Below, piece after piece: positions 10,529 to 53,226 of a DNA stretch of 64,000 nucleotides. The stretch's first letter is position 1. The number at the start of each line of letters is the position of its first letter. Under the pieces are notes generated by a model that was given only the letters and a program-made list of their open reading frames with translations, was not told where the DNA came from and did not search any database. The DNA lies in contig JAHFGL010000003.1 of the NCBI GenBank assembly GCA_023247445.1, positions 14,128 to 78,127 on the forward strand, read 5' to 3'. This DNA is from Candidatus Omnitrophota bacterium (GTDB lineage Bacteria > Omnitrophota > Gorgyraeia > Zapsychrales > Zapsychraceae). Position numbers and translations under genes: made by a program.

Positions 10529-10634
10529 CAAAATAGTGGCCAAAATAATCTTGCTATAAATATTCGATACATATATAATAGCGCTCCAAGTGTAGAGAAA
10601 CTATACAGTTATGTGAGGAGCAGCGTTTTAAATA

Positions 10635-10786
10635 AAATTCCAATAAACAAGTACCAAATACCAAGCAATGCACAAATCCCAATGACCAAAATTTAGTTTT
10701 GTACCTTGTTAATTGGATTTTTTTTGGTATTTGTGATTTTGGATTTGTATATTGTCTGTGATTTGGTGTTTGGGATTTGGAATTTT
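10635..10786 (+). promoter_or_regulatory. long imperfect hairpin (A/C-rich arm then G/T-rich arm) immediately upstream of the trxA RBS; copy A of a three-member family
   Basis: aaattccaataaacaagtaccaaataccaa...ttggtatttgtgattttggatttg...tgggatttggaatttt; arms are complementary (ccaaataccaa/ttggtatttgg, caaatcccaa/ttgggatttg); followed by aaaagaggagg and ATG. Confidence 0.4.
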
Positions 10787-10802
10787 AAAAGAGGAGGATT
10801 GA

Positions 10803-11123
10803 ATGTCTGTTGCACAAATTACAGGGAAGAATTTTGAGAACGAAGTTGCTAAATCCAACTTGCCGGTTTTAGTTGATTTTTGGGCCGAGTGGTGTGGCCC
10901 TTGCCGGATGATTACCCCCATTGTTGATGAAATTGCTAAAGACTTAACTGGAAAGTTAAAGGTCGGGAAGGTTAACGTTGATGATGAACAAGAATTAGCC
11001 GCCCGATTTAATATTATGTCCATTCCGACGCTTCTCATTTTTAAAAAAGGCGAGGCCGTTGATCAAATTGTTGGTGCGATGTCGAAAGATCAGCTTTTAG
11101 CTAGGATAAATCCGAATTTATAA
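10803..11123 (+). CDS. trxA: thioredoxin
   Basis: 106 aa; WAEWCGPCR active site; strong RBS gaggagg. Confidence 0.9.
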   Translation: MSVAQITGKNFENEVAKSNLPVLVDFWAEWCGPCRMITPIVDEIAKDLTGKLKVGKVNVDDEQELAARFNIMSIPTLLIFKKGEAVDQIVGAMSKDQLLARINPNL

Positions 11124-11130
11124 GGGGCAA

Positions 11131-11188
11131 GTAGCAAGGGGCATGGGTCAAGGACATATTCCTTGCTACATGACCCTTGACCCTTTTA
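11131..11188 (+). terminator. rho-independent terminator after trxA
   Basis: GGGTCAAGG...CCTTGACCC 9-bp stem (with a nested alternative TAGCAAGG/CCTTGCTA) followed by TTTT. Confidence 0.5.
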
Positions 11189-11197
11189 GGAGAATTT

Positions 11198-11548
11198 ATG
11201 TTCATTCATTTCTGCAAATCCAAACTAGCTCACGCAACCATTAACGAAGCCGAACTTCATTATGAGGGAAGCATCACCATTGATGCCAATTTGCTTAAAG
11301 CCGTCGATATTATTCCTGGTGAAAAAGTCGAGGTTCTTAACATTAATAATGGAAATCGGTTCGAAACATATGCCATTGCTGGAGAGCCTGGTTCTGGTCA
11401 TATTTGCCTTAACGGTCCTGCCGCTCGCTTAGGGCTTGTGGGAGATAAGATCATCATATTAAGTTATGTTCTTTTGGATCCCAACGAAGCCAAAACGTTT
11501 AAGACAAAAGTTGTTCACTTAGATGCTCACAACAAAATTAAAAATTAG
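11198..11548 (+). CDS. panD: aspartate 1-decarboxylase
   Basis: KLHRATV-like [21 protein letters not shown], then ...[26 protein letters not shown]; ATG at 11198 follows aggag (the ORF track starts earlier at 11177). Confidence 0.8.
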
Positions 11549-12029
11549 ACTTTACGGCGACCCATGCCTTCGTAAAAAGTCTACTCTTTTAAAAGAAGTA
11601 GGTCCTTCCGAGCGTATTTTAATTGATTCCATGATTGCCACGATGCATGACTATAAGGGGATTGGTCTGGCGGCGCCGCAGGTGGGTGTTAACCAGCGCA
11701 TTATTGTTGCTGATATCGGAGAAGGCCCCATGGCCTTAATTAATCCTAAAATTATAAGAAAGTCAGGAACAGATATTTTGGAAGAAGGCTGTTTAAGTAT
11801 TCCCGGCATTACGGTCAAGATTAAGCGTGCGCAAAAAGTTTTGGTTCAATACACCGATCATAATAATAAATCTGTCGAGAAGGTTTTTGAAGATTTACTG
11901 GCGCGGGTGATTTTGCACGAAACGGATCATTTAGATGGGAAGTTGATCATTGATTATGCGACGATTGTAGCTAAACGGAAATTTAAAAACCAACTCAAAG
12001 AAATTGAAGCTAGCCAAAAGAAGTCATAA
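11523..12029 (+). CDS. def: peptide deformylase
   Basis: [18 protein letters not shown] and HETDHLDG motifs; overlaps the panD 3' end by 26 nt. Confidence 0.85.
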
Positions 12030-12949
12030 TGCCCCAATTATTAGAAGATAATCCAACCGCCGATAATAATCGTTTACCGCTGTGGTTTAATCAGCCAATT
12101 CCGAATATGGATAAAATTCGGGAAATGAAGGGGCTGTTTCGCTCTTCGGGACTGCATACGGTTTGCGAAAGCGCGCATTGCCCTAATATTGGTAAATGCT
12201 GGGGAGAAGGAGTTGCCACATTTATGATTTTAGGCGAGATCTGCACGCGTGCGTGTCGCTTTTGTGCGGTTAAAGCGGGCAAGGCGATGGATGTTGATTT
12301 AGAAGAACCCAAGAATGTGGCGCTCGCGGTCCAAAAATTAAAATTACGTTATGTGGTCATTACATCTGTTGCTCGTGATGATTTAGATGATGAAGGGGCG
12401 GATCATTTTGCGCAAACTATATCTGAAATTAGGCGGATAATGCCGCAAACAAAGATTGAGGTTTTGATTCCAGACTTTTCCAACAAAATGGATAGTCTTA
12501 AGAAACTTGTTGCCGCCAAACCCGAAGTTGTCAGCCATAATATCGAAACGGTTCGTCGGCTGTCGCCAAAAATTAGACCACAGGCCCAGTATGATCGATC
12601 GCTGGAGGTTCTGCGTAATTTTAAGAAATTGGATGTAAGTATTTTTACCAAATCAAGTTTTATGGTTGGACTAGGAGAAACAGACGAAGAAATCGACGTC
12701 GTCATGCAAGATTTATTAAAAGCAGAGTGTGATATTTTAACGATCGGTCAATATTTAGCGCCAACTAAATTAAAACGGCATCTGAAAGTTTCACGATTTG
12801 CGACACCCAAAGAATTTGACAATTATAAACAGCGGGGCCTGGCGATGGGATTTAAACATGTGATGAGTGGCCCTCTCGTGCGAAGTTCTTTTATCGCTGA
12901 AGAAGGATATAAAGAATGTTTTGGAAAGGGCGTTGCTAAAAATGTCTGA
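12029..12949 (+). CDS. lipA: lipoyl synthase
   Basis: CPNIGKCWG auxiliary-cluster motif and CTRACRFCAV radical-SAM CxxxCxxC motif. Confidence 0.9.
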   Translation: MPQLLEDNPTADNNRLPLWFNQPIPNMDKIREMKGLFRSSGLHTVCESAHCPNIGKCWGEGVATFMILGEICTRACRFCAVKAGKAMDVDLEEPKNVALAVQKLKLRYVVITSVARDDLDDEGADHFAQTISEIRRIMPQTKIEVLIPDFSNKMDSLKKLVAAKPEVVSHNIETVRRLSPKIRPQAQYDRSLEVLRNFKKLDVSIFTKSSFMVGLGETDEEIDVVMQDLLKAECDILTIGQYLAPTKLKRHLKVSRFATPKEFDNYKQRGLAMGFKHVMSGPLVRSSFIAEEGYKECFGKGVAKNV

Positions 12950-13940
12950 ACCTAAGAAAAAAAATAATCTTCTTTCATGGCTAATGCGGGTTGGGTTTAG
13001 CGCAGCTTTATTAGGTTATATATTTTCTAAAATTGATATAACACAAACATGGACCGTGTTTAAGTCCGCCGATTTTAGCTATATTTTTTATGCCTGGTGG
13101 GTGTTTTGTTTTATTAATGCCATTATTCTTTGGCGATGGTTTACTCTTATTCGAGCTGTTGATTTAACGACACCTTTTTTTACCGTCGCACGGTATTTTC
13201 TTGTTGGTTTGTTTGGAAATTTATTTCTTCCGAGTGCGGTTGGTGGAGATATTATCAAAATTGTTGGTTTGTGTAAGGATAGTCATCAAAAACCTAAGGT
13301 TGTTGCCTCGGTCCTACTTGATCGCCTTAGTGGTTTTTCAGGAATCGTGGTCGTTGCCATTGGCGCATTTCTGTTTGGATACCGTATTATCAATAACCCC
13401 TCACTTTTAATTTTTGTTATGATTTTGGCGGCGGTATCATTGACCGTCACATTTATATTGTTTAATGAAAGAATTTATTCTTTTTCTTGTCAGATTTTTA
13501 ATGCCTTTCCCCGTGTTAAAAACAGTCTGATGAGCCTACATTACGATGTGTCGTTATTAAAAACGAAGAAAATTGAAGGATTTAAAGCTATTGGTTTTTC
13601 CTGTATGGCTCAAATTTTATTAGCGTTTGTTTTTTATTTGGTGGCCAAAGCTCTGCACCAAGATATTCCAATAATCTATTTTCTAATTTTTGTTCCCATG
13701 ATTTGCGTCGTTTCATCAGTTCCCTCCATTGGTGGATTAGGTGTTCGAGAAGCAGGGGCGGTTTATTTGTTTACCAAAATTGGAGTGCCTTCCAACATCG
13801 CTCTTAGCATTTCGTTAATTAATTTTTCTTTTATGGTGCTTATTGGTCTTTTAGGCGGAATTGTCTATGTCATTACACTATCTTCTAGACGGGTACAACA
13901 TTATCCATCAGATACCAAAGCTAAGCCTCGAGAAGCTTGA
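12942..13940 (+). CDS. flippase-like membrane protein (UPF0104 / lysylphosphatidylglycerol-synthase TM-region family)
   Basis: GLFGNLFLPSAVGGDIIKI signature; about 8 TM segments; ATG at 12942 overlaps the lipA stop (the track start at 12867 is probably too early). Confidence 0.55.
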   Translation: MSEPKKKNNLLSWLMRVGFSAALLGYIFSKIDITQTWTVFKSADFSYIFYAWWVFCFINAIILWRWFTLIRAVDLTTPFFTVARYFLVGLFGNLFLPSAVGGDIIKIVGLCKDSHQKPKVVASVLLDRLSGFSGIVVVAIGAFLFGYRIINNPSLLIFVMILAAVSLTVTFILFNERIYSFSCQIFNAFPRVKNSLMSLHYDVSLLKTKKIEGFKAIGFSCMAQILLAFVFYLVAKALHQDIPIIYFLIFVPMICVVSSVPSIGGLGVREAGAVYLFTKIGVPSNIALSISLINFSFMVLIGLLGGIVYVITLSSRRVQHYPSDTKAKPREA

Positions 13941-14367
13941 AGTTCAGCGTAAAGAATTGGTACGCTTTATTGAGATGCATGGGCTTAAAGGGAGCATTAA
14001 TAATCAGTTAACCATTGTTTTTGACGGGAAGGCGACGGTTTTTGGTTCTTTTGAAAGTGGGCCAGTTAAGGTCATTTTTTCTCATGGCGAATCGGCTGAT
14101 GAAAAAATAAAGAGAATTGTTAGTGATGCTGGGGATAAGAAAAATATTGTTGTCGTGACTGATGATCGCGATATTCAATATGCGATAAGAGCCTTAGGGG
14201 CGAAATCGATGGCGGTTAAAGAATTTTTGTCAAAGGCCAAACCTTCTTTAATGGCCAGCAATGTGAAGAAAAAGCAATTGAAAGAAAATAAACAAATTTC
14301 AAATGTCCTGGAATCTAAGATTACGTCGGAATTCGAACGCATTTGGCTCAAATCAAAAGAAAAATAA
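13861..14367 (+). CDS. NYN-domain (YacP/Rae1-like) predicted RNase
   Basis: LLDGYNIIHQ N-terminal motif and VVVTDDRDIQ acidic block typical of YacP-like NYN domains. Confidence 0.5.
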   Translation: MSMSLHYLLDGYNIIHQIPKLSLEKLEVQRKELVRFIEMHGLKGSINNQLTIVFDGKATVFGSFESGPVKVIFSHGESADEKIKRIVSDAGDKKNIVVVTDDRDIQYAIRALGAKSMAVKEFLSKAKPSLMASNVKKKQLKENKQISNVLESKITSEFERIWLKSKEK

Positions 14368-14373
14368 TTAACC

Positions 14374-15141
14374 ATGACATTGATGGCTGTATACCAACAA
14401 GTAGTAAGAAGCTTAGGTAATGCTCTTTGGTTTTTAGGAGAGATTTTCGGGAATATCCTCCGCGGGAAAATTCGTTTTGGGGAAGTCCTTAAGCAGGTTT
14501 ATGAACAAGGATTGCAATCGGTTGTTATTGTTGTTTTAACTTCGCTCGCGTCAGGACTTGTTTTGGCCTTGCAAGGATATGTGGCGATGTCACGCTTTGG
14601 GGCTAAAGAGTTTGTGGCGGATCTGGTGGCGCTGTCACTCGTGCGGGAGCTAGGTCCTGTCTTTACCGCTCTTGTTTTTTCTGGAAAGGCAGGCGCGCGT
14701 ATTACAGCTGAACTGGGAACGATGAATGTTAACGACCAAATTTTAGCGACGCGGACTTTGGGTGTTGATCCTATGGAGTTTCTTGTTGTTCCACGAATGG
14801 TTGCCTGTTTTTTGGTTTTACCAATTTTAACGATCATTTCGGAATTTTGTGGCATCATGGGCGGATATTTTGTGGGGGTAACGCAGGCTCACATTGCTGG
14901 TGTTTATTATATTAACGAGACAATTCGCGCGATCCATTATGTCGATTTCTTTAGCGGCTTTATCAAAGTTTTTTTCTTTGCGATTTTAATCGGATGGATT
15001 TGCTGTTATGAAGGATTTTCGACGAAGGGCGGATCTTTAGGGGTTGGAAAATATACGACAAAGGCTGTTGCCTATTCGTATATTTTTGTTATTTTATTAA
15101 ATACATTATTAACGAAAGTCATTTTAACTTTCTGGGGGTAA
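14374..15141 (+). CDS. mlaE: ABC transporter permease, MlaE family
   Basis: LVRELGPVFTALVFSGKAGARITAELGTM matches the MlaE/Ttg2B signature. Confidence 0.8.
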   Translation: MTLMAVYQQVVRSLGNALWFLGEIFGNILRGKIRFGEVLKQVYEQGLQSVVIVVLTSLASGLVLALQGYVAMSRFGAKEFVADLVALSLVRELGPVFTALVFSGKAGARITAELGTMNVNDQILATRTLGVDPMEFLVVPRMVACFLVLPILTIISEFCGIMGGYFVGVTQAHIAGVYYINETIRAIHYVDFFSGFIKVFFFAILIGWICCYEGFSTKGGSLGVGKYTTKAVAYSYIFVILLNTLLTKVILTFWG

Positions 15142-15143
15142 GG

Positions 15144-15497
15144 ATGAAAAGGTTGTTTAATAAGAACAATTTGTTTCTTTGTTGTTATGTATTTTTGACT
15201 TGTTGCTTTATTGGTTGTGTGAGTACGGTTGGCAATGATGGACAATTGCAAAGTTATTCGTTTGCCACTGTTGAGCCCCAATGGATTCGCGATGGAGAGC
15301 CCATTGAGTTTGATCAGGAATTATGGTATCCGGCTGATGATACAGAGAATTTGACGGATAACGAAGTAACGCTTTTAACGGAACATCGTGGTGTTCAAGT
15401 TTTTATTGATGAGAAGGATGTTAAACCATATCACAGGCTTTACACTAAATTTGGTAAAAATAAATTTAGATATTTTGAAAAGCAAACCGCCGAATGA
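15144..15497 (+). CDS. small lipoprotein of unknown function, inserted between mlaE and mlaF
   Basis: signal peptide with lipobox FIGC; 117 aa. Confidence 0.45.
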   Translation: MKRLFNKNNLFLCCYVFLTCCFIGCVSTVGNDGQLQSYSFATVEPQWIRDGEPIEFDQELWYPADDTENLTDNEVTLLTEHRGVQVFIDEKDVKPYHRLYTKFGKNKFRYFEKQTAE

Positions 15498-16210
15498 TTC
15501 GTGTCCGAAATGTTTCAAAAAGTTTTAACGATCAATTAGTCCTTAATGATGTTAGTCTCGACATTAAGAGCGAAGAAATTTTTGTTGTCTTAGGTGAGAG
15601 CGGCGCTGGTAAAAGTGTTCTTTTAAAACATTTGATTGGGCTTCTTCAGCCTGACTCCGGGACGATTCAAATTGACAATGAGGACATCACGCATTTGCCG
15701 GAGAGCAAATTGCTTAAAATGAGAAAAAAGATGGGATACCTTTTTCAAGAAGGGGCTTTGTACGATTTTATGACGGTTTTTGAGAACATTGCTTTTCCTC
15801 TACGGGAGCATGCCCACCTGGATGAAAAAACTATTCGGCAGAAGGTTAAAGATATTTTGAAGATGATTGATTTGGACGAGGTTGAAGAAAAAATGCCAGC
15901 ACAGTTAAGCGGTGGGATGAAGAAAAGAGTGGCGCTCGCCAGGGCCATGATTTTGGATTCTAAAATATTGTTTTGTGATGAGCCGACTTCGGGTTTAGAC
16001 CCAATCCGTAGCCGAGATGTATCGGATTTGATCCGTAATGTCTCGAGGAAATTTGGGTGCACCACGGTGATTACTTCTCATGATATTCGAAATTCTTTTC
16101 GTGTGGCTGATCGATTGGCACTAATTCATGATGGAAAGATTATTGCCATGGGAACACAAGATGAACTTAAAGCATCAAAAGATGCATTCGTTAAAGAATT
16201 TATTAGTTAA
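15494..16210 (+). CDS. mlaF: ABC transporter ATP-binding protein, MlaF family
   Basis: Walker A GESGAGKS, ABC signature LSGGMKKRVALARA, Walker B ILFCDEPTSGLD. Confidence 0.85.
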   Translation: MIRVRNVSKSFNDQLVLNDVSLDIKSEEIFVVLGESGAGKSVLLKHLIGLLQPDSGTIQIDNEDITHLPESKLLKMRKKMGYLFQEGALYDFMTVFENIAFPLREHAHLDEKTIRQKVKDILKMIDLDEVEEKMPAQLSGGMKKRVALARAMILDSKILFCDEPTSGLDPIRSRDVSDLIRNVSRKFGCTTVITSHDIRNSFRVADRLALIHDGKIIAMGTQDELKASKDAFVKEFIS

Positions 16211-16237
16211 TGTTCACACCAGATAAACTTTAGCTTT

Positions 16238-16927
16238 TTGGGTTTGAAAGGACATATGGACAAAAAAGAAAAGAGAACTCAATATTTAGCTGCACTTTTT
16301 TTTATTGGTGGGATTGTGCTTATTATGGTTTTTATCTTTACCATTGGTAAAGATAAAGGATTCTCGCGGCCAAAATTTCAAGTTTCTGTTTTGTTTAAGA
16401 ATGTGGGAGGTTTAAGTGAAGGCGCTCCAACCCGTCTGGCGGGTGTTAATGTTGGTAATGTTGCTAGCATCGATTTTTTGGATAAAGAAATTGAAGGCCG
16501 ACGGGTCAAAGTTACACTGAATATTTATAACAAATATCGACAACAGTTAAATAAGAATGTTAGCTTTGCTATTAAAACCGAAGGGGTTTTGGGGGAGAAA
16601 CTTGTTGAGATTTATGTTATTGATAATTTAAGTAAAATTGATCTTAGCCAGCAGATTTTTGGGGAAGATCCTTTGGATGTTCAGGATCTAGCTCAAGTTT
16701 TCTCTGGCGCGGCGGAATCTTTTACGAAGACTTCCGATGAATTAAGTAAGATTGATATGGTTAAGCTTTCGGATGTTTTGCTTGAGGCATCACAATCGCT
16801 TATTAAAACTTCCAACAACATTAATGTGATGGTAGGTGAGTTGCAAGAAACAACACGAAAAACAAAGCGTCTGATTGACCGTGTTGAACAAAAAGTGATT
16901 GAAGGAAATTTATTTAAAGTTTTCTAA
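16238..16927 (+). CDS. mlaD: MCE-domain protein, MlaD family
   Basis: N-terminal TM plus MCE fold (VGGLSEGAPTRLAGVNVGNVASI); follows mlaF. Confidence 0.7.
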   Translation: MGLKGHMDKKEKRTQYLAALFFIGGIVLIMVFIFTIGKDKGFSRPKFQVSVLFKNVGGLSEGAPTRLAGVNVGNVASIDFLDKEIEGRRVKVTLNIYNKYRQQLNKNVSFAIKTEGVLGEKLVEIYVIDNLSKIDLSQQIFGEDPLDVQDLAQVFSGAAESFTKTSDELSKIDMVKLSDVLLEASQSLIKTSNNINVMVGELQETTRKTKRLIDRVEQKVIEGNLFKVF

Positions 16928-16944
16928 AGGCAAAAGGATTCTCA

Positions 16945-17241
16945 ATGTTTGTTCTAAGTAATTTTATTATCGCATTGGCAAAAATGGTGGATGCTGTTTT
17001 ATGGCTAGCCCCTTGGCTAATCTTTGTCAGAGTTGCGCTTAGTTGGGTTAACGCTGATCCTTATAATCCTATTGTTCAATTTCTTTGTCGGATAACAGAG
17101 CCAGTCTTAGCGTTTTTTAGAAGGTTTTTACCGCCGATCAGCGGATTTGATGTTTCGCCGATTATTGCGTGTGTCGTTATTATGTTTTTGCGATCATTTT
17201 TAGTCACGACACTTTTTGATTTGGCTTTTCGTTTGCGGTAA
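16945..17241 (+). CDS. YggT family membrane protein
   Basis: 98 aa, two TM segments; PIVQFLCRITEPVLAFFRRFLPPISGFDVSPIIA. Confidence 0.6.
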   Translation: MFVLSNFIIALAKMVDAVLWLAPWLIFVRVALSWVNADPYNPIVQFLCRITEPVLAFFRRFLPPISGFDVSPIIACVVIMFLRSFLVTTLFDLAFRLR

Positions 17242-17322
17242 CTTAATTTAGGTCTTGCAAATTTTTTGGAGATAGAGTATAAGATTGCTATTCATATTTT
17301 GTAATTTCGAAAAGAGGTTATT

Positions 17323-17613
17323 ATGTTTGATAAAATGAAACAATTGATGGAAATGAAAAAACAGGCCGATCAGATCAAACGCGAGTTGGATGCATCAAGC
17401 GTTGAGGTGACAGAAGTCCGTGGTATTAAAATTGTTATTAATGGATCTCAAGATATTCAATCGTTGGAACTTGATGAGAGTTTGTTGGGCGCCTCCAATA
17501 AGAGTAGATTAGAAGGGGATTTGAAAAAAAGCTTAAATGCCGCCATCAAAAAGTCGCAGATGTTAGCCGCTCAAAAAATGAAGAACCTTATGCCAGGTTT
17601 TCCTGGGCTTTAA
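17323..17613 (+). CDS. ybaB: nucleoid-associated protein YbaB/EbfC
   Basis: 96 aa; MKQLMEMKKQADQIKRELDASSVEVTEVRGIKIVINGSQDI pattern. Confidence 0.75.
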   Translation: MFDKMKQLMEMKKQADQIKRELDASSVEVTEVRGIKIVINGSQDIQSLELDESLLGASNKSRLEGDLKKSLNAAIKKSQMLAAQKMKNLMPGFPGL

Positions 17614-17646
17614 ATAAGGGTTAACGTAATTTAAAAAGGAGTTATC

Positions 17647-17880
17647 ATGCCGTATGATGCATCATTAGATGTGGTATCTTTTAAAGAAGCAAAAGAGTTT
17701 GATGATACGCGTATTACTGTTGGTATTTTTTCTTATAATAACGGGGAAAAGAAATTGCAGATTTCTCGTGAGAATTTGAATCAAGAAAATGAATGGCGTT
17801 TTGCGAAGTTAGGACGTTTAAACAAGAACGAAGCCAAAGAAATTATTCCGATTTTGATTAAAGCTGCAGAAAATATGTAA
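17647..17880 (+). CDS. small protein, possibly YdbC-like (PC4-fold) ssDNA-binding
   Basis: 77 aa; SYNNGEKKLQISRE...FAKLGRLNKNEAKEI resembles the YdbC ISWNGR.PKYDLRDW...GKGITLSNEE pattern; weak. Confidence 0.3.
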   Translation: MPYDASLDVVSFKEAKEFDDTRITVGIFSYNNGEKKLQISRENLNQENEWRFAKLGRLNKNEAKEIIPILIKAAENM

Positions 17881-17968
17881 AATTATCCCGGGATTATTTA
17901 ATCTTAAATAATTCTGGGATGATTTATTTCTAGTACATTATCTCCAAAATTTGAAAGGGTATTTGATC

Positions 17969-18445
17969 ATGACAGATTCTGTATATTTGACAAGGGCGGG
18001 TTATAAAAAGCTGATGAAAGAGCTGGAACAGCAAAAATCAGAGAGACTGAAGATTGCCAAGGCTATCGAAGAGGCACGGTTACAAGGTGATATCTCTGAG
18101 AATGCTGAATATGATGCGGCTAAAGATGCTCAGGCGCATAATGCTGTCAGAATAGCTGAGCTAGAAACTAAATTGACCAAGGTTAGAATTATTGAAGATG
18201 AGAATATTCCCTCCGATAAGATTTTTATTGGGGCGATCGTTAAGTTAAAAGATCAGGACACAGGTGAGCAACTTACCTATATGCTCGTTTCTCCGGAAGA
18301 GGCAGATTACGAAGAAAATAAACTCTCCATTTATTCACCCATCGGTAAGGCTTTGATGGGGCACGCCCAAGGTGAGATTCTTTCCATTAAAGTTCCCGCC
18401 GGAATTCTTAAGTACAAAGTTGTAAAAATCGAACGCCCTAAGTAG
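17969..18445 (+). CDS. greA: transcription elongation factor GreA
   Basis: MTDSVYLTRAGYKKLMKELE N-terminal coiled coil, C-terminal FKBP-like domain; ATG at 17969 (the track uses an upstream TTG at 17951). Confidence 0.85.
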   Translation: MTDSVYLTRAGYKKLMKELEQQKSERLKIAKAIEEARLQGDISENAEYDAAKDAQAHNAVRIAELETKLTKVRIIEDENIPSDKIFIGAIVKLKDQDTGEQLTYMLVSPEEADYEENKLSIYSPIGKALMGHAQGEILSIKVPAGILKYKVVKIERPK

Positions 18446-18484
18446 GGAATAGGGTTTAGGGATCAGGGGTTAACTATTTAATCG

Positions 18485-19990: not shown

Positions 19991-20418
19991 GGCTTTCTTC
20001 GGATTAATATCATTCCAAATTTATTTACAAACAAAGGTTCAGCATTTAATTCTTTAATTTTTTCAAGGGCCTGAAGATCGTTTTTACAGACTAAAAGAAT
20101 GAATTCATGATTTGTATTGTTGTAGTCAAGCACCGTGGGCGCCAAAATAAATTGAGCCTGAGAAAATAGTTTGTTTGATTCATCATCATTGGTGTCGCTA
20201 TAATAGCCCAAGAGGTTAATCTTTTTGGTAATGTTTTCTAATCCTAGGAATTTGCCCCCGATGACTTGATGCTTTAGATATTTTTTAAATGTTTTAATGC
20301 GGTTGACCTCGGGGATAAAGACAATAACATTAAAAATAATAATGGCCAGGAAGGAGACGATAAGAATTCTCTGGGGCAAAGATTTTGGCCAATTTATTTT
20401 AAATGAGGGCAACGTCAT
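19987..20418 (-). CDS. small single-TM protein; paralog of 23408-23869
   Basis: 143 aa; shares SQAQFILAPTVLDY / LQAQYFLAPTILEL with the 153-aa protein; 4-nt overlap with the downstream gene. Confidence 0.45.
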   Translation of the reverse strand: MTLPSFKINWPKSLPQRILIVSFLAIIIFNVIVFIPEVNRIKTFKKYLKHQVIGGKFLGLENITKKINLLGYYSDTNDDESNKLFSQAQFILAPTVLDYNNTNHEFILLVCKNDLQALEKIKELNAEPLFVNKFGMILIRRKP

Positions 20419-23411: not shown

Positions 23412-23869
23412 CGTTTTCTTTGCGTCAAGGCCTGTCCGTAGTCATTGTGGGCCACTGGACGGGCATTAATTTTTCTTAACACCATTGGAAGAATTGTATA
23501 ATCAGGAAAGTCGACAATGTTAAATACTGGATTGGGTCGATTGAGTTCTAAGATCGTTGGCGCCAAGAAATACTGTGCTTGTAAGAAAATCCCATCGTTT
23601 TTTTCTCGCGACATATCTTTGCTGGTTAAATAGCCAACACGTTCTATCCCAGCGAGTTTAGGTTTGAAGGTGAGAAATTGATACCCTGGCTCGTAATAAG
23701 TGCTATAACCACTGGCAACATGGGCCATGACACTAATATAAAGAGAAATAATATTATGGATAAGAAGTCCGCAGGTTAATGCCAAAATGAGGGTGTTTAC
23801 GTGAAACCATTTTTTGGGGAACATAGGCGAAGCTATTTTATTACTGGACCTTTGAGAAAACAAGCTCAA
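23408..23869 (-). CDS. small single-TM protein; paralog of 19987-20418
   Basis: 153 aa; overlaps the start of the 998-aa gene by 4 nt. Confidence 0.45.
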   Translation of the reverse strand: MSLFSQRSSNKIASPMFPKKWFHVNTLILALTCGLLIHNIISLYISVMAHVASGYSTYYEPGYQFLTFKPKLAGIERVGYLTSKDMSREKNDGIFLQAQYFLAPTILELNRPNPVFNIVDFPDYTILPMVLRKINARPVAHNDYGQALTQRKR

Positions 23870-23997
23870 AATTACCCGCCGCGCATCTAATTTGAAGAGA
23901 AGTAAAACTAAAAATTAGGGCTTTCTTAAATTTATCTTAGTCAGTATAATATAGCCCGTTTAGAGACATTATTTTGTTTAGACAACAGCATTAAAAT

Positions 23998-24122
23998 AAA
24001 TTCCAATAAACAAGTACCAAATACCAAACAATCCACAAATACCAATGACCAAAAGTCATATTTAGCTTTGTAGTTTGTTAATTGGAATTTGTTTGGTATT
24101 TGAGATTTGGGATTTTGAATTT
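23998..24122 (+). promoter_or_regulatory. long imperfect hairpin element, copy B, immediately upstream of the RBS of the Gfo/Idh/MocA gene
   Basis: aaattccaataaacaagtaccaaataccaaacaatccacaaataccaa ... ttggaatttgtttggtatttgagatttgggattttgaattt, then aaaaagaggag. Confidence 0.4.
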
Positions 24123-24139
24123 AAAAAGAGGAGAAGAAG

Positions 24140-25156
24140 TTGGTTCATGTCGGGATTATCGGTTGTGGTCATTGGGGGCCCAACCACGTTCGTATTTTTT
24201 CACAGCTCTTAAATTCTAAGGCCTTGATGTGCGCTGATTTTGATGAAGGCCGGCTTAAAACGATAAAAAGTTTATTTCCTCAGATTGAGACAACCACAGA
24301 TTATAAGAAGATTTTAGCGAATAAAGAGATCCATGCGGTCTGCATCGCGACTCCAACCAATACACATTATTCGATAGCCAAAGAAGCCTTGGAACATGAC
24401 AAACATGTCTTGTGTGAAAAGCCTCTTGCGTTAACTTCCTCCGAATGTGAAGAGCTCAAAAATCTGGCCCGTGACAAAAATCGGCTGCTTATGGTTGGAC
24501 ATGTTTTTCTTTTTAATAAAGGAATTTTGTGGCTTAAGGAATATATTCAGTCAGGGGAGTTGGGGCATATTCATTATGCGTATGCTACAAGAACTAATCT
24601 GGGGCCGTTTCGTTATGATGTTAATGCGCTTTGGGATTTGGCGCCGCATGATATTTCAATCTTTAATTTTTTGTTTAATAGTGCGCCGGTAAATGTCTCG
24701 GCCCGCGGACAAAAATGTTTGGGGAATTCGCAGGAAGATTTGGCCTTTGCCACGTTAGAGTATCCGGGGAATTGTATGGCGAACGTCCATGTCAGCTGGC
24801 TTGATCCTAAAAAGGTTCGACAGATTACAATCGTTGGTGATAAGAAAATGGTGGTTTGGGATGATTTGGATAATCTCGGGCCCATTCAGCTTTATGATAA
24901 ACATGTCGAGAAAACGTCAACCTTCTATGCCACGTATGGTGAATTTCAGTTATTGTCTAAAGAAGGAAATATTACGATTCCCAAAATAGGATTTAATGAG
25001 CCCCTTAAAGCGCAGGCTGAATATTTTATTAATTGTATTGAGCAAAATAAAAATCCTGATGTCTGTGACGCGCAAAAAGGATTGGACGTCACAAAAACTT
25101 TGTGTGCGATTCAGCAATCTATGGATCGTAAAGGTGAATGCGTGGTGGTTAAGTGA
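24140..25156 (+). CDS. Gfo/Idh/MocA family NAD-dependent oxidoreductase (WbpB-like UDP-sugar 3-dehydrogenase candidate)
   Basis: VGIIGCGHWGPNHVR Rossmann motif and EKPLALTSSECEEL block; TTG start after aggag. Confidence 0.75.
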   Translation: MVHVGIIGCGHWGPNHVRIFSQLLNSKALMCADFDEGRLKTIKSLFPQIETTTDYKKILANKEIHAVCIATPTNTHYSIAKEALEHDKHVLCEKPLALTSSECEELKNLARDKNRLLMVGHVFLFNKGILWLKEYIQSGELGHIHYAYATRTNLGPFRYDVNALWDLAPHDISIFNFLFNSAPVNVSARGQKCLGNSQEDLAFATLEYPGNCMANVHVSWLDPKKVRQITIVGDKKMVVWDDLDNLGPIQLYDKHVEKTSTFYATYGEFQLLSKEGNITIPKIGFNEPLKAQAEYFINCIEQNKNPDVCDAQKGLDVTKTLCAIQQSMDRKGECVVVK

Positions 25157-25710
25157 GTTATTTTAAACATGAAAAAGCGATGGTCCATCCTGACGCCAAA
25201 ATTGGGGAAGGAACGCGTTGTTGGGCCAACACCAATGTTCAAGCAGGCGCTGTCATTGGTCAAGGATGTAATATCTGCGATGGCAGCTTTGTTGAAAAGG
25301 GGGCGGTCGTTGGCCATCATGTGACGATCAAACACCATGTCTCTATTTTTGATGGGGTGACTATTGAAGATGATGTTTTTATTGGATCCAATATTGCTTT
25401 TATCAATGATCGTTATCCGCGCAGCAATCGTAAAGATGCATGGACGCTTGAGAAGACGTTGGTTAAAAAGGGAGCAACCATTGGAACAAATGCCGTTATC
25501 TTATGTGGCTTAACGATTGGTCAATATGCGCTTGTGGCCGCAGGAGCGGTTGTTGTTAAGAATGTTTTAGATCACGAGGTTGTGGCTGGAAATCCTGCAC
25601 GAGCGAAAGGTTATGCCTGCCACTGCGGACGTCCGCTTGATGCCAAATATAAATGTGCGAAATGTAAACGGCAATATCGTAAGAAAAAATTTGGATTGGA
25701 AGAAAAATAA
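25153..25710 (+). CDS. hexapeptide-repeat (left-handed beta-helix) acetyltransferase, WbpD/PglD-like, with a C-terminal Cys-rich tail
   Basis: repeated [LIV]G.....G hexads (IGSNIAFINDRY, IGTNAVILCGLTIGQYALVAAGAVV); tail CHCGRPLDAKYKCAKCKRQY; 4-nt overlap with the upstream gene. Confidence 0.7.
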   Translation: MSYFKHEKAMVHPDAKIGEGTRCWANTNVQAGAVIGQGCNICDGSFVEKGAVVGHHVTIKHHVSIFDGVTIEDDVFIGSNIAFINDRYPRSNRKDAWTLEKTLVKKGATIGTNAVILCGLTIGQYALVAAGAVVVKNVLDHEVVAGNPARAKGYACHCGRPLDAKYKCAKCKRQYRKKKFGLEEK

Positions 25711-25717
25711 ATTTATT

Positions 25718-25890
25718 GTCATTCTTCGTTCCGCAAAGCGGAACGAAGAATCTCAGGACACTTAAAACTTATGGGATCCTTCGCATCAACTTTCCTTTAA
25801 TATTTTAGAGGAAGTTGGTACGTACTGACTTCATCTAAATATAAATTATGGAAAAGTCAGTACGCTACGCTCCATTAGACGAGAGCGTCG
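25718..25890 (-). mobile_element. MITE-like element, copy 3 (opposite orientation to copy 1)
   Basis: gtcattcttcgttccgcaaagcggaacgaagaatctcagg...gggatccttcgc...ggtacgtactgacttcatctaaatataaattatggaaaagtcagtacgctacgctc. Confidence 0.7.
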
Positions 25891-25903
25891 AATAAAATAT
25901 AAA

Positions 25904-26635
25904 ATGTCGAAAATTCTGGTCTGTCCGGTTGCCTTTAATGAACATGTGAAGTTAAAGAATGCGATTGAACGCTTTTTGAAATCTGCTGCTTATGGCAAAG
26001 TCGATTATTTAATCGTTGATGACGGTTCAACTGACGGCACAACCGAAATGATTGTAAGTTACGCCTCTTCGGGAGTTAAGACGATTAAGCATGGGCAGCG
26101 AAGCGGCGTTGGCGTTGCGATTCGCACGGCAATCAACCATGCTAAAGTTCGTGGTTATGAAATTTTAGTGATCATGGCGGGCAATGATAAAGATAATCCC
26201 GAAGAGATTCCACGGTTGATTGATCCGATTGTTAAAGAAGGTTATGATTTTGTGCAAGGTTCACGTTATAAGGGCGCCAATGGCATCGGCGGTGATATGC
26301 CGTTTTATCGAAAGGTAGCAACGAAGCTTCATCCACTTCTTATGTCGATTATTACGGGCCAGAAGATAACAGACTCGACTAATGGTTTTCGAGCTTTTCG
26401 ACTTTCGATTTTTGATAATAAAGATATTAATATTGATCAACCGTGGCTGGACAAATATGAACTTGAGCCGTATTTGCTTTTTAAAGCAATTAAGTTGGGA
26501 TATAAATTTCAAGAAGCGGCTGTTACAAAGATTTATCCATCTAAGAAGCTTGGTTACACCAAGATGCAACCGTTTATCGGCTGGTGGAGCATTTTAAGAC
26601 CAGTAATTTTTTTAGGTTTAGGAATCAAAAAATAA
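25904..26635 (+). CDS. GT2 family glycosyltransferase, polyprenyl-phosphate sugar synthase-like (DPM1/CsbB/ArnC-like)
   Basis: DYLIVDDGSTDGT nucleotide-sugar-binding motif; 243 aa with a C-terminal hydrophobic tail. Confidence 0.75.
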   Translation: MSKILVCPVAFNEHVKLKNAIERFLKSAAYGKVDYLIVDDGSTDGTTEMIVSYASSGVKTIKHGQRSGVGVAIRTAINHAKVRGYEILVIMAGNDKDNPEEIPRLIDPIVKEGYDFVQGSRYKGANGIGGDMPFYRKVATKLHPLLMSIITGQKITDSTNGFRAFRLSIFDNKDINIDQPWLDKYELEPYLLFKAIKLGYKFQEAAVTKIYPSKKLGYTKMQPFIGWWSILRPVIFLGLGIKK

Positions 26636-26666
26636 TTTACATCAACATATAACAAAGGATACCCAC

Positions 26667-26942
26667 ATGAAACAAAAACATCTTCTAATAGTATTAACGG
26701 TGTTGTTGGTTGGTTGTGCTTATAAAGGACAGCAGGCGCTTGAAACCTATATTGATGAACCCGAAACAATTTTGCGTGATCCTCATTTTACTAATTATCA
26801 AGAAGCCAGTGATCATTTAGAAAGCGAATATTTAAAGAAGACGATCACCTATGCCGAGTATGTAGAAAAGAAAAAAGAGCTGGATGATAAGTACGCGAAA
26901 GAAGTCCATGAGCGTGATTCAATCGTCGCTCCGGGGCAATAA
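26667..26942 (+). CDS. small lipoprotein, unknown function
   Basis: signal peptide plus lipobox LLVGCAYKG. Confidence 0.4.
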   Translation: MKQKHLLIVLTVLLVGCAYKGQQALETYIDEPETILRDPHFTNYQEASDHLESEYLKKTITYAEYVEKKKELDDKYAKEVHERDSIVAPGQ

Positions 26943-26943
26943 T

Positions 26944-27678
26944 ATGCGCCTTTATGGTAAAAATCCTGTTATTGAACGCTTACGTTCGAATCCCACCACG
27001 ATAAAGAAAATATTTATTGAAGATAATTTCTCAGAGGCTTCGTATATCCATCAGAAGGCGAAGAAATGGGGGATCTCTGTTTTTATTATCACGCGAGCTA
27101 GAATGATTAAGATCGCGCGCAATATTAATACTCAGGGGATTTTAGTTGAGGTCGATGATTTTGTTTACACGCCTTACGATGAACTTCTTGAAGATGCGCG
27201 AGATAAACATAAGTGTATTTTGTTTTTAGATGAATTAAATGATCCGCAGAATTTGGGCGGCATTATCCGTAGTGTTGCTTGTTTGGGAAAGTTTTCGATT
27301 GTCCTGCCCACCCATGATTCGGTCAGCGTCACTGATGCTGTTTTACGTGTTGCCTCCGGTGGTGATAATTATGTCAAGATTGCCAGGGTTTCTAATTTAA
27401 CGAATGCGATTAAATCCGCCAAAGATTCAGATTTTGAGATTGCCGGTGCTGTCGTTGAGGGTGGAGAATCGTTAATTGATGTTACGTTTCCATATCCATT
27501 AGGACTGGTGGTTGGCTCGGAACAAAAGGGAATTCGTGAGGTGATTCGTAAACATTTAGATTTACAGGTAACCATCCCAATGGCGGCTGCTTCTGGGCTG
27601 TCTTATAACGTGACCCACGCCACAACCATGTTTTGCTATGAAATCACACGACAAAAAAAGCTCAGAGAAAAAAAGTAA
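26944..27678 (+). CDS. TrmH/SpoU family RNA 2'-O-methyltransferase (RlmB-like)
   Basis: MRLYGKNPVIERL N-terminus; LGGIIRS and VVGSEQKGI SPOUT motifs; ATG at 26944 directly after the upstream stop. Confidence 0.7.
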   Translation: MRLYGKNPVIERLRSNPTTIKKIFIEDNFSEASYIHQKAKKWGISVFIITRARMIKIARNINTQGILVEVDDFVYTPYDELLEDARDKHKCILFLDELNDPQNLGGIIRSVACLGKFSIVLPTHDSVSVTDAVLRVASGGDNYVKIARVSNLTNAIKSAKDSDFEIAGAVVEGGESLIDVTFPYPLGLVVGSEQKGIREVIRKHLDLQVTIPMAAASGLSYNVTHATTMFCYEITRQKKLREKK

Positions 27679-28258
27679 AGTATCGGCGGAAACGCATCTC
27701 ATCAATTTATTTGCTGAAGCGGGCCTTTTAAAAAAGGTCAAGCGCAGCGGTTGGTGGGTGGTTGGTATCCGCAATCCTGAAAGTGTGGCTGATCATTCTT
27801 TTCGCTGCGCCATTATCGGGTATCACATTGCCCAATTAGAAAAGGTTGACCCTTATAAAGTTTTGGTGATGACTTTATTTAATGACATCCATGAAGCGCG
27901 GATTAATGATTTGCATAAAATGGGTCATTATTACATTGATTTTAAAGATGCGGAAAAGAAAGTTTTCAAAGATCAGGTAAAATATTTGGGAAGTAAGGTT
28001 AAGCTCGAGATGGAGGATTGCCGCCGAGGATATGATGAGCAGAAGACTAAAGAAAGCATCGTCGCCCGCGATGCGGATATTTTAGAGTGTTTGCTGCAGG
28101 CAAAAGAATATTATGAGGAAGGCTATACGAAGGCCAAGAAATTTTTCCAAAAAGCCCCGGGTTATTTGAAAACAAAAACCGCAAAGCGTCTTTGGCAACA
28201 GATTAAACGTTGGGATAGCTCAAAGTGGTGGGAAGATGTGGTTAAATTTGAAAGATAG
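27638..28258 (+). CDS. HD-domain phosphohydrolase (YfbR-like 5'-deoxynucleotidase family)
   Basis: RSGWWVVGIRNPESVADHSFRCAIIGYHIA HD motif region. Confidence 0.6.
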   Translation: MKSHDKKSSEKKSKVSAETHLINLFAEAGLLKKVKRSGWWVVGIRNPESVADHSFRCAIIGYHIAQLEKVDPYKVLVMTLFNDIHEARINDLHKMGHYYIDFKDAEKKVFKDQVKYLGSKVKLEMEDCRRGYDEQKTKESIVARDADILECLLQAKEYYEEGYTKAKKFFQKAPGYLKTKTAKRLWQQIKRWDSSKWWEDVVKFER

Positions 28259-29120
28259 AGAAGTTAAATTCCAAATTACAAATCCAAAACCACAAACAAA
28301 TTCTAAATTCCAAACTCCAAATCATAAACGTTTTGGGCTTGGTGTTTGTTTATTGTCTGTGATTTGGAATTTGTGGTTTGTGCTTTTTCTTTCAGGTTGT
28401 GGAACTTTCGGAAATTATAATGCCGCCACGGGCCATCGAGAATTCATCGCCATCCCGACCAATCAAGAAGTTTCCATGGGGCAGGGAATTCATCAAGATA
28501 TTCTTAAGAAATATAGACTTTGTACAGATCAATCCAAGGTTCAACGAGTCGAGCGAATTGGTCTGCGGGTTGCCCAAATCTCGGACCGTCAGGATTATCA
28601 ATACCATTTTTATGTTTTAGAGAGTGATGATCTTAATGCTTTTACTACGCCGGGTGGAAGTGTTTATCTTTATACAGGGTTACTAGATAAGTTAACGACC
28701 GATGATCAAGTGGCGGCTGTTATCGCCCATGAGATCGGTCATTGCGCGGCTCGTCACACGATTAAAAAATATCAAGCGGCGCTTGGTTATCAATTGGTCG
28801 GCAACATTCTTTTAAGCCAAATTCAAGGATCCCAAGCTAAACAAGTTACTTCCTTGGGATCAAATTTAGCGATGAATCTTGTTTTTTCTGCTTATGGCCG
28901 TGGCGATGAATATGAAGCTGATCGTTTGGGTATTAAATATTTGTATTTAGCTGGATATGATTTGGAAGGGATGGTTGAAACGTTGGGGGTATTAAAGCAG
29001 GCCTCCAAAGGCTCTAAACCACCGCTTATTTTAAGCAGTCATCCCTACGTGGAAGATCGTATTGAAGAAGTGAAAAAAGAAATTGTCAAAGTCCGACAAC
29101 AATTTAAAGATGATTCGTAA
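28236..29120 (+). CDS. M48 family zinc metallopeptidase (BepA/LoiP-like) with lipoprotein-type signal; true start uncertain
   Basis: AHEIGHCAARH (HExxH), signal/lipobox LFLSGCGT; the first ~40 codons of the tracked ORF translate the hairpin repeat, so the real start is probably an in-frame TTG/GTG near 28340-28350. Confidence 0.7.
   Translation: MWLNLKDREVKFQITNPKPQTNSKFQTPNHKRFGLGVCLLSVIWNLWFVLFLSGCGTFGNYNAATGHREFIAIPTNQEVSMGQGIHQDILKKYRLCTDQSKVQRVERIGLRVAQISDRQDYQYHFYVLESDDLNAFTTPGGSVYLYTGLLDKLTTDDQVAAVIAHEIGHCAARHTIKKYQAALGYQLVGNILLSQIQGSQAKQVTSLGSNLAMNLVFSAYGRGDEYEADRLGIKYLYLAGYDLEGMVETLGVLKQASKGSKPPLILSSHPYVEDRIEEVKKEIVKVRQQFKDDS
28266..28382 (+). promoter_or_regulatory. hairpin element, copy C, overlapping the 5' end of the M48 peptidase ORF
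   Basis: aaattccaaattacaaatccaaaaccacaaacaaattc...ttggtgtttgtttattgtctgtgatttggaatttgtggtttgtg; shares tattgtctgtgatttgg exactly with copy A. Confidence 0.35.
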
Positions 29121-39762: not shown

Positions 39763-39900
39763 AGGAGCAAAGCGTACTGACTTTTCCATAATTTATATTT
39801 AGATGAAGTCAGTACGTACCAACTTCCTCTAAAATATTAAAGGACAGTTGGTGCGACTGAAGGATCTCTTAAGAGATCCTTCGCTTACGCTCAGGATGAC
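39752..39900 (+). mobile_element. MITE-like element, copy 4 (full length, same orientation as copy 1)
   Basis: cgtcatcctgaaggagcaaagcgtactgacttttccataatttatatttagatgaagtcagtacgtacc...gaaggatctcttaagagatccttcgcttacgctcaggatgacg. Confidence 0.75.
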
Positions 39901-53140: not shown

Positions 53141-53174
53141 TAAAACACTAAATCCAAAACTCTAAATAAATTTA

Positions 53175-53210
53175 AAAGCCAAATGCACAAGTTAAGCATT
53201 TGGCTTTTAA
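53175..53210. terminator. bidirectional rho-independent terminator between convergent genes
   Basis: aaagccaaatgc-acaagttaa-gcatttggcttt, a perfect 12-bp stem, A-run upstream and T-run downstream. Confidence 0.55.
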
Positions 53211-53226
53211 GGTTTTATAAGGCCGT

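Follow-up and report, generated by a model that had tools for sequence, protein, structure and literature searches.

Three palindromic repeats in an Omnitrophota genome as probable reading-frame-less members of a cross-phylum family of intervening-sequence-like elements

The 64,000-nucleotide stretch of DNA analysed here, referred to as the window, derives from a Candidatus Omnitrophota bacterium (GenBank assembly GCA_023247445.1, contig JAHFGL010000003.1, positions 14,128 to 78,127). It carries three related imperfect hairpins, designated copies A, B and C, which lie before trxA, before a Gfo/Idh/MocA sugar-modification operon and within the 5′ end of an M48 lipoprotein peptidase frame. A sequence-only reading of this DNA had drawn attention to the hairpins and had proposed that each is a transcribed leader structure with a fixed orientation, such as an attenuator, a thermosensor or an RNase III site, perhaps defining a common regulon. 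The hairpins, their surroundings (ORF, open reading frame) and a possible fourth copy are as follows.

10551..10579, plus strand: promoter-like TTGCTA-17-TATAAT upstream of copy A (consensus scan, 10/12 matches; a consensus match only)
10635..10785, no strand assigned: copy A, an ORF-less hairpin element with its left A/C arm at ~10635-10690 and its right G/T arm at ~10706-10785 (patterns, fold, profile)
10791..10805, plus strand: Shine-Dalgarno GAGGAGG and trxA ATG, just outside the stem of A (sequence)
10803-11123, plus strand: trxA ORF, whose product matches the Thioredoxin Pfam family
23945..23950, plus strand: TATAAT box upstream of copy B (sequence; the scan gives no full -35/-10 pair here)
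23998..24122, no strand assigned: copy B, an ORF-less hairpin element and paralogue of A (patterns, fold, profile)
24128..24142, plus strand: GAGGAG ribosome-binding site and TTG start of the Gfo/Idh/MocA gene (sequence)
24140-25156, plus strand: Gfo/Idh/MocA gene (Pfam GFO_IDH_MocA from residue 3)
28236..28400, plus strand: N-terminal coding region of the M48 lipoprotein peptidase, running through copy C (translation)
28266..28382, no strand assigned: copy C, a hairpin inside the 5′ end of the M48 peptidase frame; its tight terminal inverted repeat stops at 28372
53141..53226 (approximate), no strand assigned: possible degenerate or partial fourth copy (weak profile matches, E=0.11 and 0.23; not secure)

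The kinship of the three copies goes far beyond chance. An exact 30-mer, AAATTCCAATAAACAAGTACCAAATACCAA, stands at 10635 in A and at 23998 in B, and a degenerate 34-mer (ten two-fold degenerate positions) matches A, B and C (28266) and nowhere else in the 64 kb, with matches in 0/100 shuffles. Copies A and B are close paralogues, with 88% identity over 73 nucleotides of their left arms; the right arm of A is ~32 nucleotides longer than that of B, and the right terminus of B, TGAATTT, is one mismatch away from GGAATTT. Copy C is ~65-70% similar to A and B and has the 17-mer TATTGTCTGTGATTTGG in common with the right arm of A. RNAs of the plus strand are predicted to fold with energies of -48.2 (A), -33.9 (B) and -34.4 kcal/mol (C), at z scores of about -4 (A -4.0, B -3.9), and minus-strand RNAs fold about as stably (-38.9, -32.4 and -37.6 kcal/mol; z -4.0 to -5.2). 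Loops of ~20-55 nucleotides, free of ORFs, separate the arms. In A and B the stem ends 4-5 nucleotides before the GAGGAG Shine-Dalgarno core, and neither the Shine-Dalgarno sequence nor the start codon is paired in the minimum-energy fold or in the centroid fold. The sequence-only reading had described three related hairpins at these places, long imperfect stems and, in A and B, a stem end about 5 nucleotides before aaaagaggag, and each of these descriptions is borne out by the pattern matches, the shuffles, the folding energies and the measured distances.

Copies A, B and C are members of a bounded palindromic repeat family that extends across phyla. A left-arm pattern scan of one genome per species yields at least 120 genome loci, as compared with a chance expectation in 596 Gb that, by our own arithmetic, lies between ~2 matches (uniform composition) and ~14 (all genomes at 35% G+C). 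Because this genome sample had been chosen by its left arm, metagenomes were scanned with a right-arm pattern, which likewise yields at least 120 loci, and the left arms at these loci show the same ordered consensus. (A generic composition-based detector of A/C-then-G/T hairpins was too noisy at low energies.) A complementary arm closes the hairpin in 70 of the 123 left-arm matches, giving elements of 57-279 nucleotides with a median of 135. The consensus reads AAATTCCAAATnACAAATyCCAAATnACAAAyAAAT..CCAATGACCAAAA - loop - TTTTGGTCATTGG..ATTTrTTTGnnATTTGGTGCTTGGrATTTGGAATTT and has a 7-nucleotide period, with units of nnCAAAT on one arm and ATTTGnn on the other between the termini AAATTCC and GGAATTT. 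These termini are sharp, as evident by the fact that 90 of 114 elements show no pairing beyond them. Only 11 terminal base pairs are perfect, and conserved mismatches interrupt the stems.

Carriers include Omnitrophota, Patescibacteria, Saccharibacteria, Flavobacteriales, Saprospiraceae, Chitinophaga, Desulfobacterales and Syntrophaceae, as well as Aminicenantes (Acidobacteriota), Planctomycetota (Phycisphaerae), KSB1, Calditrichia, Stahlbacteria, Clostridia and Gammaproteobacteria, and the matches listed span more than 10 phyla. Cultured carriers are Aquimarina, Maribacter, Flavobacterium and Chitinophaga japonensis DSM 13484. Viral contigs hold only four matches, and plasmids only partial right-arm matches of ~50 nucleotides (in Aeromonas and Dolichospermum); this near-absence from the viral and plasmid collections suggests that phages and plasmids are not obvious carriers. 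An exact 27-mer of the A/B type has no match in JGI metagenomes. Searches of the openly searchable literature by sequence strings and keywords, a scope outside which older subscription papers lie, returned no description of the family.

A profile built from 30 elements of unrelated genomes recovers A with E=7e-18 on the plus strand and 4e-17 on the minus strand, B with 4e-19 and 2e-18, and C with 1e-19 and 3e-19, respectively. The next-best match in the window has E=0.1. The weak candidate at 53141-53226, which combines a left-arm-like A/C stretch with a short terminator-like hairpin, lies between convergent genes. The two strands of the window copies differ in score by at most 2.4 bits, compared with a family median of 12.9. 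Because the profile scores both strands nearly equally, the family-level orientation of A, B and C is undefined; that A and B share one orientation is solid.

The link between this family and a protein gene is evident from its longer relatives. At several loci two half-elements lie 280-490 nucleotides apart, and the gene between them encodes the PF05635/TIGR02436 ‘23S rRNA intervening-sequence protein’ (S23p, alias ‘four helix bundle protein’). Direct reading of loci L190 (9030-9594) and L232 (448-953) gives a gene of ~115-125 codons bounded by an A/C arm on its left and a G/T arm on its right; S23p also occupies the loop in L257, L260 and L263, and such ORF-bearing relatives measure ~0.5 kb. 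In L044 and L239, family arms stand directly against an S23p gene in more complex arrangements. When the S23p genes of the fetched loci and of the window are taken together, 8 of 11 are flanked by inverted complementarity that exceeds the 99th percentile of 555 control ORFs (p=5e-8). This test compares local-alignment scores with those of the control ORFs; duplex energy was dropped as a measure because any two 160-nucleotide stretches give large energies.

The S23p proteins form two clades, and clade tracks arm type. Clade 1 (‘YDLEERT...GANYxEAN’) has a C-rich arm upstream, a G-rich arm downstream and units of the CAAAT type. Clade 2 (‘...NIAEG’) mostly shows the opposite polarity and includes cyanobacterial genes and the window’s only S23p gene (887-1270, with arms within 769-1345), whose units differ from those of A, B and C and whose polarity is opposite to theirs. 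In a sample of clade-1 proteins chosen regardless of DNA repeats (Chitinophagales, Brocadiaceae with two genes, Doudnabacteria and groundwater contigs), family arms flank the gene on both sides in 6/6 distinct loci, one of which also adjoins a complete ORF-less hairpin (E=1e-19). At least 7,979 clusters belong to clade-1 S23p; identity among the 120 matches listed is 66-94%, and the named sources come from several phyla. For clade 2, all six cyanobacterial plasmid genes (from Nostoc, Leptolyngbya, Brasilonema, Anabaena, Calothrix and Aphanizomenonaceae) are flanked by inverted heptamer arrays that score 17-29, compared with a control 99th percentile of 11.5. A fixed orientation of S23p relative to the arm asymmetry was considered and rejected: GGTGCTT lies downstream of the gene in some loci and, as AAGCACC, upstream in others. 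We found no S23p-heptamer link outside rRNA described in the openly searchable literature.

Two observations concern individual S23p loci. Positions 830-1950 of the Brocadiaceae locus L259 hold two tandem clade-1 genes, each with an A/C arm before it and a G/T arm after it in a unit of ~510 nucleotides, as if a complete ORF-bearing element had been duplicated in tandem. The product of the window gene gives weak bAvd and DivGenRetAVD matches, and the nearest solved relative, 2rld, is deposited with five chains.

Comparison of genomes reveals that site B is polymorphic. Ahead of the Gfo/Idh/MocA operon, copy B separates the TATAAT box from the ribosome-binding site. The same operon, likewise with a TATAAT box and with a 5′ region of ~40-45 nucleotides, occurs in synteny on two other Omnitrophota contigs, L127 (compared over 5960-6210) and L128 (5740-5950), and site B is empty in both. 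At site A, identity to the nearest lipase homologues is 40%, and these are not syntenic with trxA.

Copy C is coding sequence. In the M48 frame its left A/C arm reads KFQITNPKPQTNSKFQTPNHKR and its right G/T arm reads FGLGVCLLSVIWNLWF, followed by VLF-LSGC (lipobox, Cys55). The product (recorded as P0001) has 294 amino acids; most homologues have 255-265 and short lipoprotein signal peptides. Reading of the sequence and its translation gives no in-frame ATG, GTG or TTG between 28248 and the G/T arm, so that the element must be translated if the signal peptide is to have a charged N-region. The G/T arm of C is thus predicted to encode the hydrophobic core of the lipoprotein signal peptide, as the sequence-only reading had suggested for the right arm, and the translation and the N-termini of homologues support this prediction. 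That reading had placed C ‘before or over’ the M48 start; the second placement holds, in that the frame runs through C, and C is not upstream of its gene.

At the same junction between an HD-domain gene and the M48 gene (syntenic with 28260-28400), L127 (10020-10110) and L128 (10020-10165) carry a different hairpin, composed of AAGACCA/TGGTCTT units. Its T-rich arm is a tandem of GTCTTTG/GTCTTCG and encodes the signal-peptide core SLVFGLWSSIF-LTGC. The high-affinity heptamer consensus of Bacillus subtilis CspB is GTCTTTG/T (PMC1904285). The GGTCTTT units in L127 and L128 match this consensus, and the GnnyTTG units of the A-C family resemble it, which we offer as a lead only for possible cold-shock-protein binding to the G/T arm.

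We consider it probable, at roughly 0.7, that A, B and C are ORF-less copies of a dispersed palindromic element resembling an rRNA intervening sequence (IVS), long relatives of which carry S23p, and that they do not constitute a dedicated switch. The window copies would then be ORF-less derivatives of an S23p-bearing extragenic element, with S23p as the obvious candidate for an element-encoded spreading factor. Copies would arrive or be lost at particular sites, because B is absent from two syntenic genomes, and would persist where they do little harm, namely in short spacers just after stop codons, in 5′ untranslated regions and at the 5′ ends of genes for exported proteins. Transcripts of trxA and of the Gfo/Idh/MocA operon would include copies A and B, respectively, in their leaders, with the ribosome-binding site left free, and C would be translated, its A/C arm into a polar N-terminal extension and its G/T arm into the hydrophobic core of the signal peptide. 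On RNA, the long imperfect stem may, by analogy with rRNA IVSs, be a substrate of RNase III, an enzyme specific for double strands; processing of transcribed stems is plausible because the family is built like these sequences, which RNase III excises. Effects on neighbouring genes, such as leader processing, altered mRNA stability or partial termination, would be by-products with no shared regulatory programme.

Several points weigh against this explanation. The proposed RNase III processing is an analogy with rRNA IVSs, and stems with only 11 perfect terminal base pairs and conserved mismatches might be poor substrates for the enzyme. The 64-kb window holds no clade-1 S23p gene, and a cognate gene in this genome is an assumption. 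It could also be that S23p often nests in hairpin loops as a passenger and is foreign to the element. The family shows a 2:1 sense bias (p=0.009; see below) that hints at strand-specific selection and is not predicted by a purely selfish model. The presence/absence comparison comes from site B only, since the relatives of site C carry a different hairpin at the junction. Finally, the locus counts and taxonomic range from both scans are lower bounds (at least 120 loci each).

The practical consequence for the window is modest: copies A, B and C are best annotated as repeat elements and not as the mark of a regulon, with the M48 start left upstream of C. This noncoding element of ~130 nucleotides keeps its ordered sequence in Omnitrophota, Patescibacteria, Bacteroidota, Desulfobacterota, Acidobacteriota, Planctomycetota and others, whereas bacterial MITEs (miniature inverted-repeat transposable elements) are reported to be essentially genus-specific, and it is linked to S23p, a small protein that is very abundant and highly conserved. 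It is a widespread IVS-like element, apparently undescribed in the searchable literature. The family therefore offers a testable handle on the origin of rRNA IVSs, on the role of S23p and on the heptamer repeats of cyanobacterial and other intergenic regions, and its cultured carriers make experiments possible. Only tentatively, and at well below even odds, do we entertain the wider proposal that heptamer-armed palindromes and S23p together form an unrecognised class of transposase-less element across phyla. In that class S23p would be the element’s own factor, binding the 7-nucleotide arrays as single-stranded DNA or RNA, copies A, B and C would be non-autonomous, and the 23S rRNA IVS and the cyanobacterial STRR-type arrays would be special cases. 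A corollary of this proposal is that insertions at the 5′ ends of genes can be adopted as signal peptides, as in the M48 peptidase, since A/C arms translate into polar residues and G/T arms into hydrophobic residues in every frame.

Among the alternatives, the one that survives best, although we judge it quite unlikely, holds that the hairpins serve the host as structural punctuation of RNA, as REP or ERIC repeats do, acting at gene ends as bidirectional 3′-end stabilisers or weak terminators. Copies do cluster near stop codons, at most tens of bases away, and are frequent in the spacers of convergent gene pairs; both strands also fold well. In addition, three Aquimarina species carry orthologous 57-nucleotide copies (L007 847-904, L048 7866-7923 and L096 7206-7263) directly upstream of a gene that we take to be accC (MFKKILIANRGEIA...). 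Stems and flanks are nearly identical among these copies and all six loop bases differ (CACTAT, TACGTC and TAGAAT), which would mean either constraint on the stem or hypermutability of the loop. However, the terminator scan is empty at A and B, and near C its only matches (28056-28074) are upstream of the element; the stems are rich in A-U and G-U pairs and have a tail of only 3-4 U residues. An element’s two arms are complementary at 26.9 of 42 positions, compared with 26.2 of 42 for arms taken from different elements, so that covariation is almost absent. Positions 17-19 form a conserved mismatch, with A-T-y on the left arm and, when the right arm is read as its reverse complement, G-C-A (the GGTGCTT motif). 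Conserved mismatches that are left uncompensated imply constraint on the sequence of each arm and not on stem stability. A punctuation role also leaves the S23p cargo unexplained. Such a role is compatible, as a secondary effect, with the preferred explanation that the hairpins are ORF-less IVS-like elements.

Slightly less credible again is the proposal of the sequence-only reading itself, that the hairpins are dedicated cis-regulatory leaders (attenuators, RNA thermometers or processing sites) that co-regulate the downstream genes. Copies A and B lie between promoter-like sequences and ribosome-binding sites and end 4-5 nucleotides before the Shine-Dalgarno core, and many family members elsewhere stop a few bases before a start codon. 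Copy A would fall in the trxA 5′ untranslated region because of the candidate promoter TTGCTA-17-TATAAT upstream, and, judged by these promoter-like sites, both A and B are very probably transcribed leader sequence. This part of the proposal is supported; that the leaders are dedicated or fixed in orientation is not. Among the mechanisms that had been proposed, an RNase III site stays plausible. Attenuator and thermosensor functions are disfavoured at A and B by the exposed Shine-Dalgarno sequences, which lie outside the stems, and by the lack of terminator matches. The ‘strict strand asymmetry’ that had been offered as orientation evidence is uninformative because the reverse complement of an A/C arm followed by a G/T arm is again an A/C arm followed by a G/T arm. 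The position of all three copies upstream of plus-strand genes is expected by chance, as 56 of 64 greedily selected ORFs in the window (~88%) are on the plus strand, which gives P ~0.67 that three random sites all precede a plus-strand gene.

The behaviour of the family leads to the same verdict on leaders. Gene contexts were assigned to intergenic copies with a simple longest-ORF model, and orientation was taken from the conserved arm asymmetry. Contexts number 29 sense, 16 antisense, 17 convergent and 13 divergent in the genome sample, and 15, 6, 5 and 3, respectively, in the metagenome sample. The pooled counts (44 sense, 22 antisense, 22 convergent and 16 divergent) give a sense to antisense ratio of 2:1 (p=0.009), which favours a leader role to the extent that it is a bias; it is not a rule. 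The 22 convergent and 22 antisense copies speak against leaders, as do the facts that copies lie closer to stop codons than to start codons, with some inside reading frames, and that arm covariation is almost absent. RNA of the element’s ‘minus’ strand folds better in 41 of 56 cases regardless of the direction of the neighbouring gene, and this independence argues against selection tied to host transcripts. The family thus occurs in both orientations and inside genes, the very pattern that had been named as contradicting a leader, and copy C lies inside a frame. Orthologous regions with the same operon have no element at site B, and copy C is coding by its translation. No hairpin matches Rfam at the gathering threshold, and relaxing E to 10 adds only chance matches to microRNA precursors. 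The genes downstream (trxA, the sugar-modification operon and the M48 lipoprotein peptidase) share no evident function that would support a common regulon. The observation that opened this analysis is real, and the conclusion drawn from it, that of a gene-specific leader, is not supported.

An ordinary MITE origin, in which non-autonomous derivatives of a DDE-type insertion sequence are moved by a transposase acting in trans on terminal inverted repeats, carries the same poor odds as dedicated leaders. The terminal inverted repeat AAATTCCAAAT/ATTTGGAATTT, the small size, A+T richness, intergenic position and many copies of the elements, and the presence/absence at site B would all fit. Against it, target-site duplications of 2-8 bp across 114 elements are no more frequent than in permuted flanks, and no transposase family recurs near ~120 loci in local neighbourhoods of up to 8 kb. 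The families that do recur there are limited to ABC ATPases, response regulators and PilB-type ATPases; an ORF lying between two copies is S23p, UPF0102 or an ordinary gene, and the long forms carry S23p and no transposase. The spread over more than 10 phyla is also at odds with bacterial MITE clusters, which are reported to be confined essentially to one genus each, none of them combining phyla at 95% identity (PMC11602168).

Least credible of all is local simple-sequence growth, in which heptamer slippage and independent fold-back at each site would produce convergent similarity across phyla: strict 7-nucleotide periodicity, unequal arms (one arm of A is ~32 nucleotides longer than that of B), one-armed tandem arrays (L105, L019 and L008) and the reported rank of heptamers as the most frequent long simple repeats of prokaryotes (Mrazek 2007, as cited in PMC4679880) are outweighed by the same order of non-identical units across phyla in two independently selected samples, the recurring central ACAAAyAAAT, loop-proximal CCAATGACCAAAA and position-specific GGTGCTT, the sharp constant termini and the tie to one clade of a protein gene.

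Other candidate classes were set aside on their defining features. REP and REPIN elements are G+C-rich palindromes of 20-40 nucleotides with a GTAG or CGTC tag and an associated RAYT gene (PMC3733652). The consensus of the present family has neither tag, its elements measure 57-250 nucleotides and are A+T rich, and no Y1-transposase-like gene recurs nearby. Integron attC sites were rejected because the ends lack GTTRRRY/RYYYAAC cores and neither an array nor an integrase is present. Sigma-54 promoters were rejected because the GG/GC spacing in TTGGAATTTGGTGC does not fit.

The closest known architecture is that of the 23S rRNA IVS, in which a terminal complementary stem encloses an S23p ORF in its loop and is excised by RNase III; where it comes from is not known, and descent from a mobile element has been suggested (PMC4990558). 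As in the IVSs of Leptospira and Coxiella burnetii, the window copies and their ORF-bearing relatives have terminal complementary sequences that form a long stem. Also shared are a loop that in long members may hold a PF05635/TIGR02436 gene of ~115-125 codons, a total length of ~0.4-0.5 kb for the ORF-bearing forms, and a sporadic distribution that suggests horizontal transfer. Unlike IVSs, which occupy helix 9, 25 or 45, family copies lie in intergenic spacers, untranslated regions and the 5′ ends of protein genes; a search of the window for rRNA via Rfam gave none, only a tRNA. The family stems are also composed of 7-nucleotide units with conserved mismatches, and in most copies, including A, B and C, the ORF has been lost or was never present.

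Effects on mRNA processing and stability have been reported for Correia and ERIC elements. Like ERIC/IRU, Correia (CREE) and MITE repeats, the family consists of imperfect palindromes of ~100-150 nucleotides that occur in many copies, are co-transcribed and stand in either orientation. It differs in having no sequence similarity to them, no target-site duplication and no transposase partner, in spanning phyla where theirs is a range of a genus or family, and in its heptamer arms and S23p cargo. Small palindromic intergenic repeat classes of this kind are covered in two reviews (PMC3184786, PMC10969869).

Heptamer tandem repeats (STRR, TAACTGA and GGGAATC/GGGGATT) are described from cyanobacteria, Beggiatoaceae, Bacteroidetes and Xanthomonas (PMC4679880, PMC4692102). 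They resemble the family in their 7-nucleotide unit, their intergenic position, often adjoining start or stop codons, and a patchy cross-phylum spread that suggests horizontal transfer; theirs occasionally form inverted pairs capable of a stem-loop. STRR-type repeats are mostly direct arrays of one unit, whereas the family has two complementary arrays of ordered non-identical units with fixed termini. The link between heptamer arrays and S23p, seen here on plasmids of Nostoc, Calothrix, Anabaena and Leptolyngbya, was not found in those two papers. One-armed tandem arrays with no complementary arm, composed of (AAATTCCAAATCAC)n or mixed heptamers, occur at L105 4347-4540, L019 2908-3010 and L008 11-75, and the L019 array stops directly at a start codon, like the TAACTGA arrays of Beggiatoaceae.

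PF05635 has been likened to Avd, an accessory protein of retroelements (PMC10053308). The loop gene belongs to the same family as Avd of diversity-generating retroelements, a likeness confined to the fold and family of the protein. In the loci read, none of the S23p genes has a reverse transcriptase, a template repeat or a variable repeat beside it.

Further observations bear on loops and reading frames of the family. Hairpin loops often hold unrelated G+C-rich palindromes such as CCTGCCTGCGCGGTAGGCAGG and CGCCTCGTCTTCGACGAGGCG (L022, L024, L110, L120, L139, L207 and L235), and the loop seems either to tolerate other small repeats or to attract them. Arms of the A/C type also lie within long ORFs. 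At ~2650-2850 of the Patescibacteria locus L002, NSKLQITNSKLQI... is apparently in frame within a 1158-codon ORF. That ORF presumably encodes leucyl-tRNA synthetase, given motifs such as TTRPDTLFG. At L260 1001-1060 an A/C arm reads as an N-terminal extension of the S23p gene. Such cases may be over-extended gene calls or real translated insertions.

The window contains at least two further intergenic palindromic repeat families, TTTAGATGAAGTCAGTACGTACCAACTTCATCTAAA and GAAGGATCTCTTAAGAGATCCTTCG with ...CTCAGGATGACG, at 1487-1538, 25803-25854, 39797-39848 and 45757-45808, and at 39859-39901, 42636-42678 and 45712-45754. Positions 25781-25878 and 39759-39856 form a 98-nucleotide pair that is 94% complementary. 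In L245, from an unrelated metagenome, the loop of a family hairpin nests a repeat of similar motifs (...GAAGGATCTC..., ...GAGATTCTTCGCTCC..., ...AGAATGACG). Lastly, 1614-3788 and 4713-6950 are adjacent paralogues of ~725-745 codons with stretches of 70-78% DNA identity at a constant offset of ~3.1 kb and, together with 3788-4708 and 6940-7863, they represent a tandem duplication of a gene pair.

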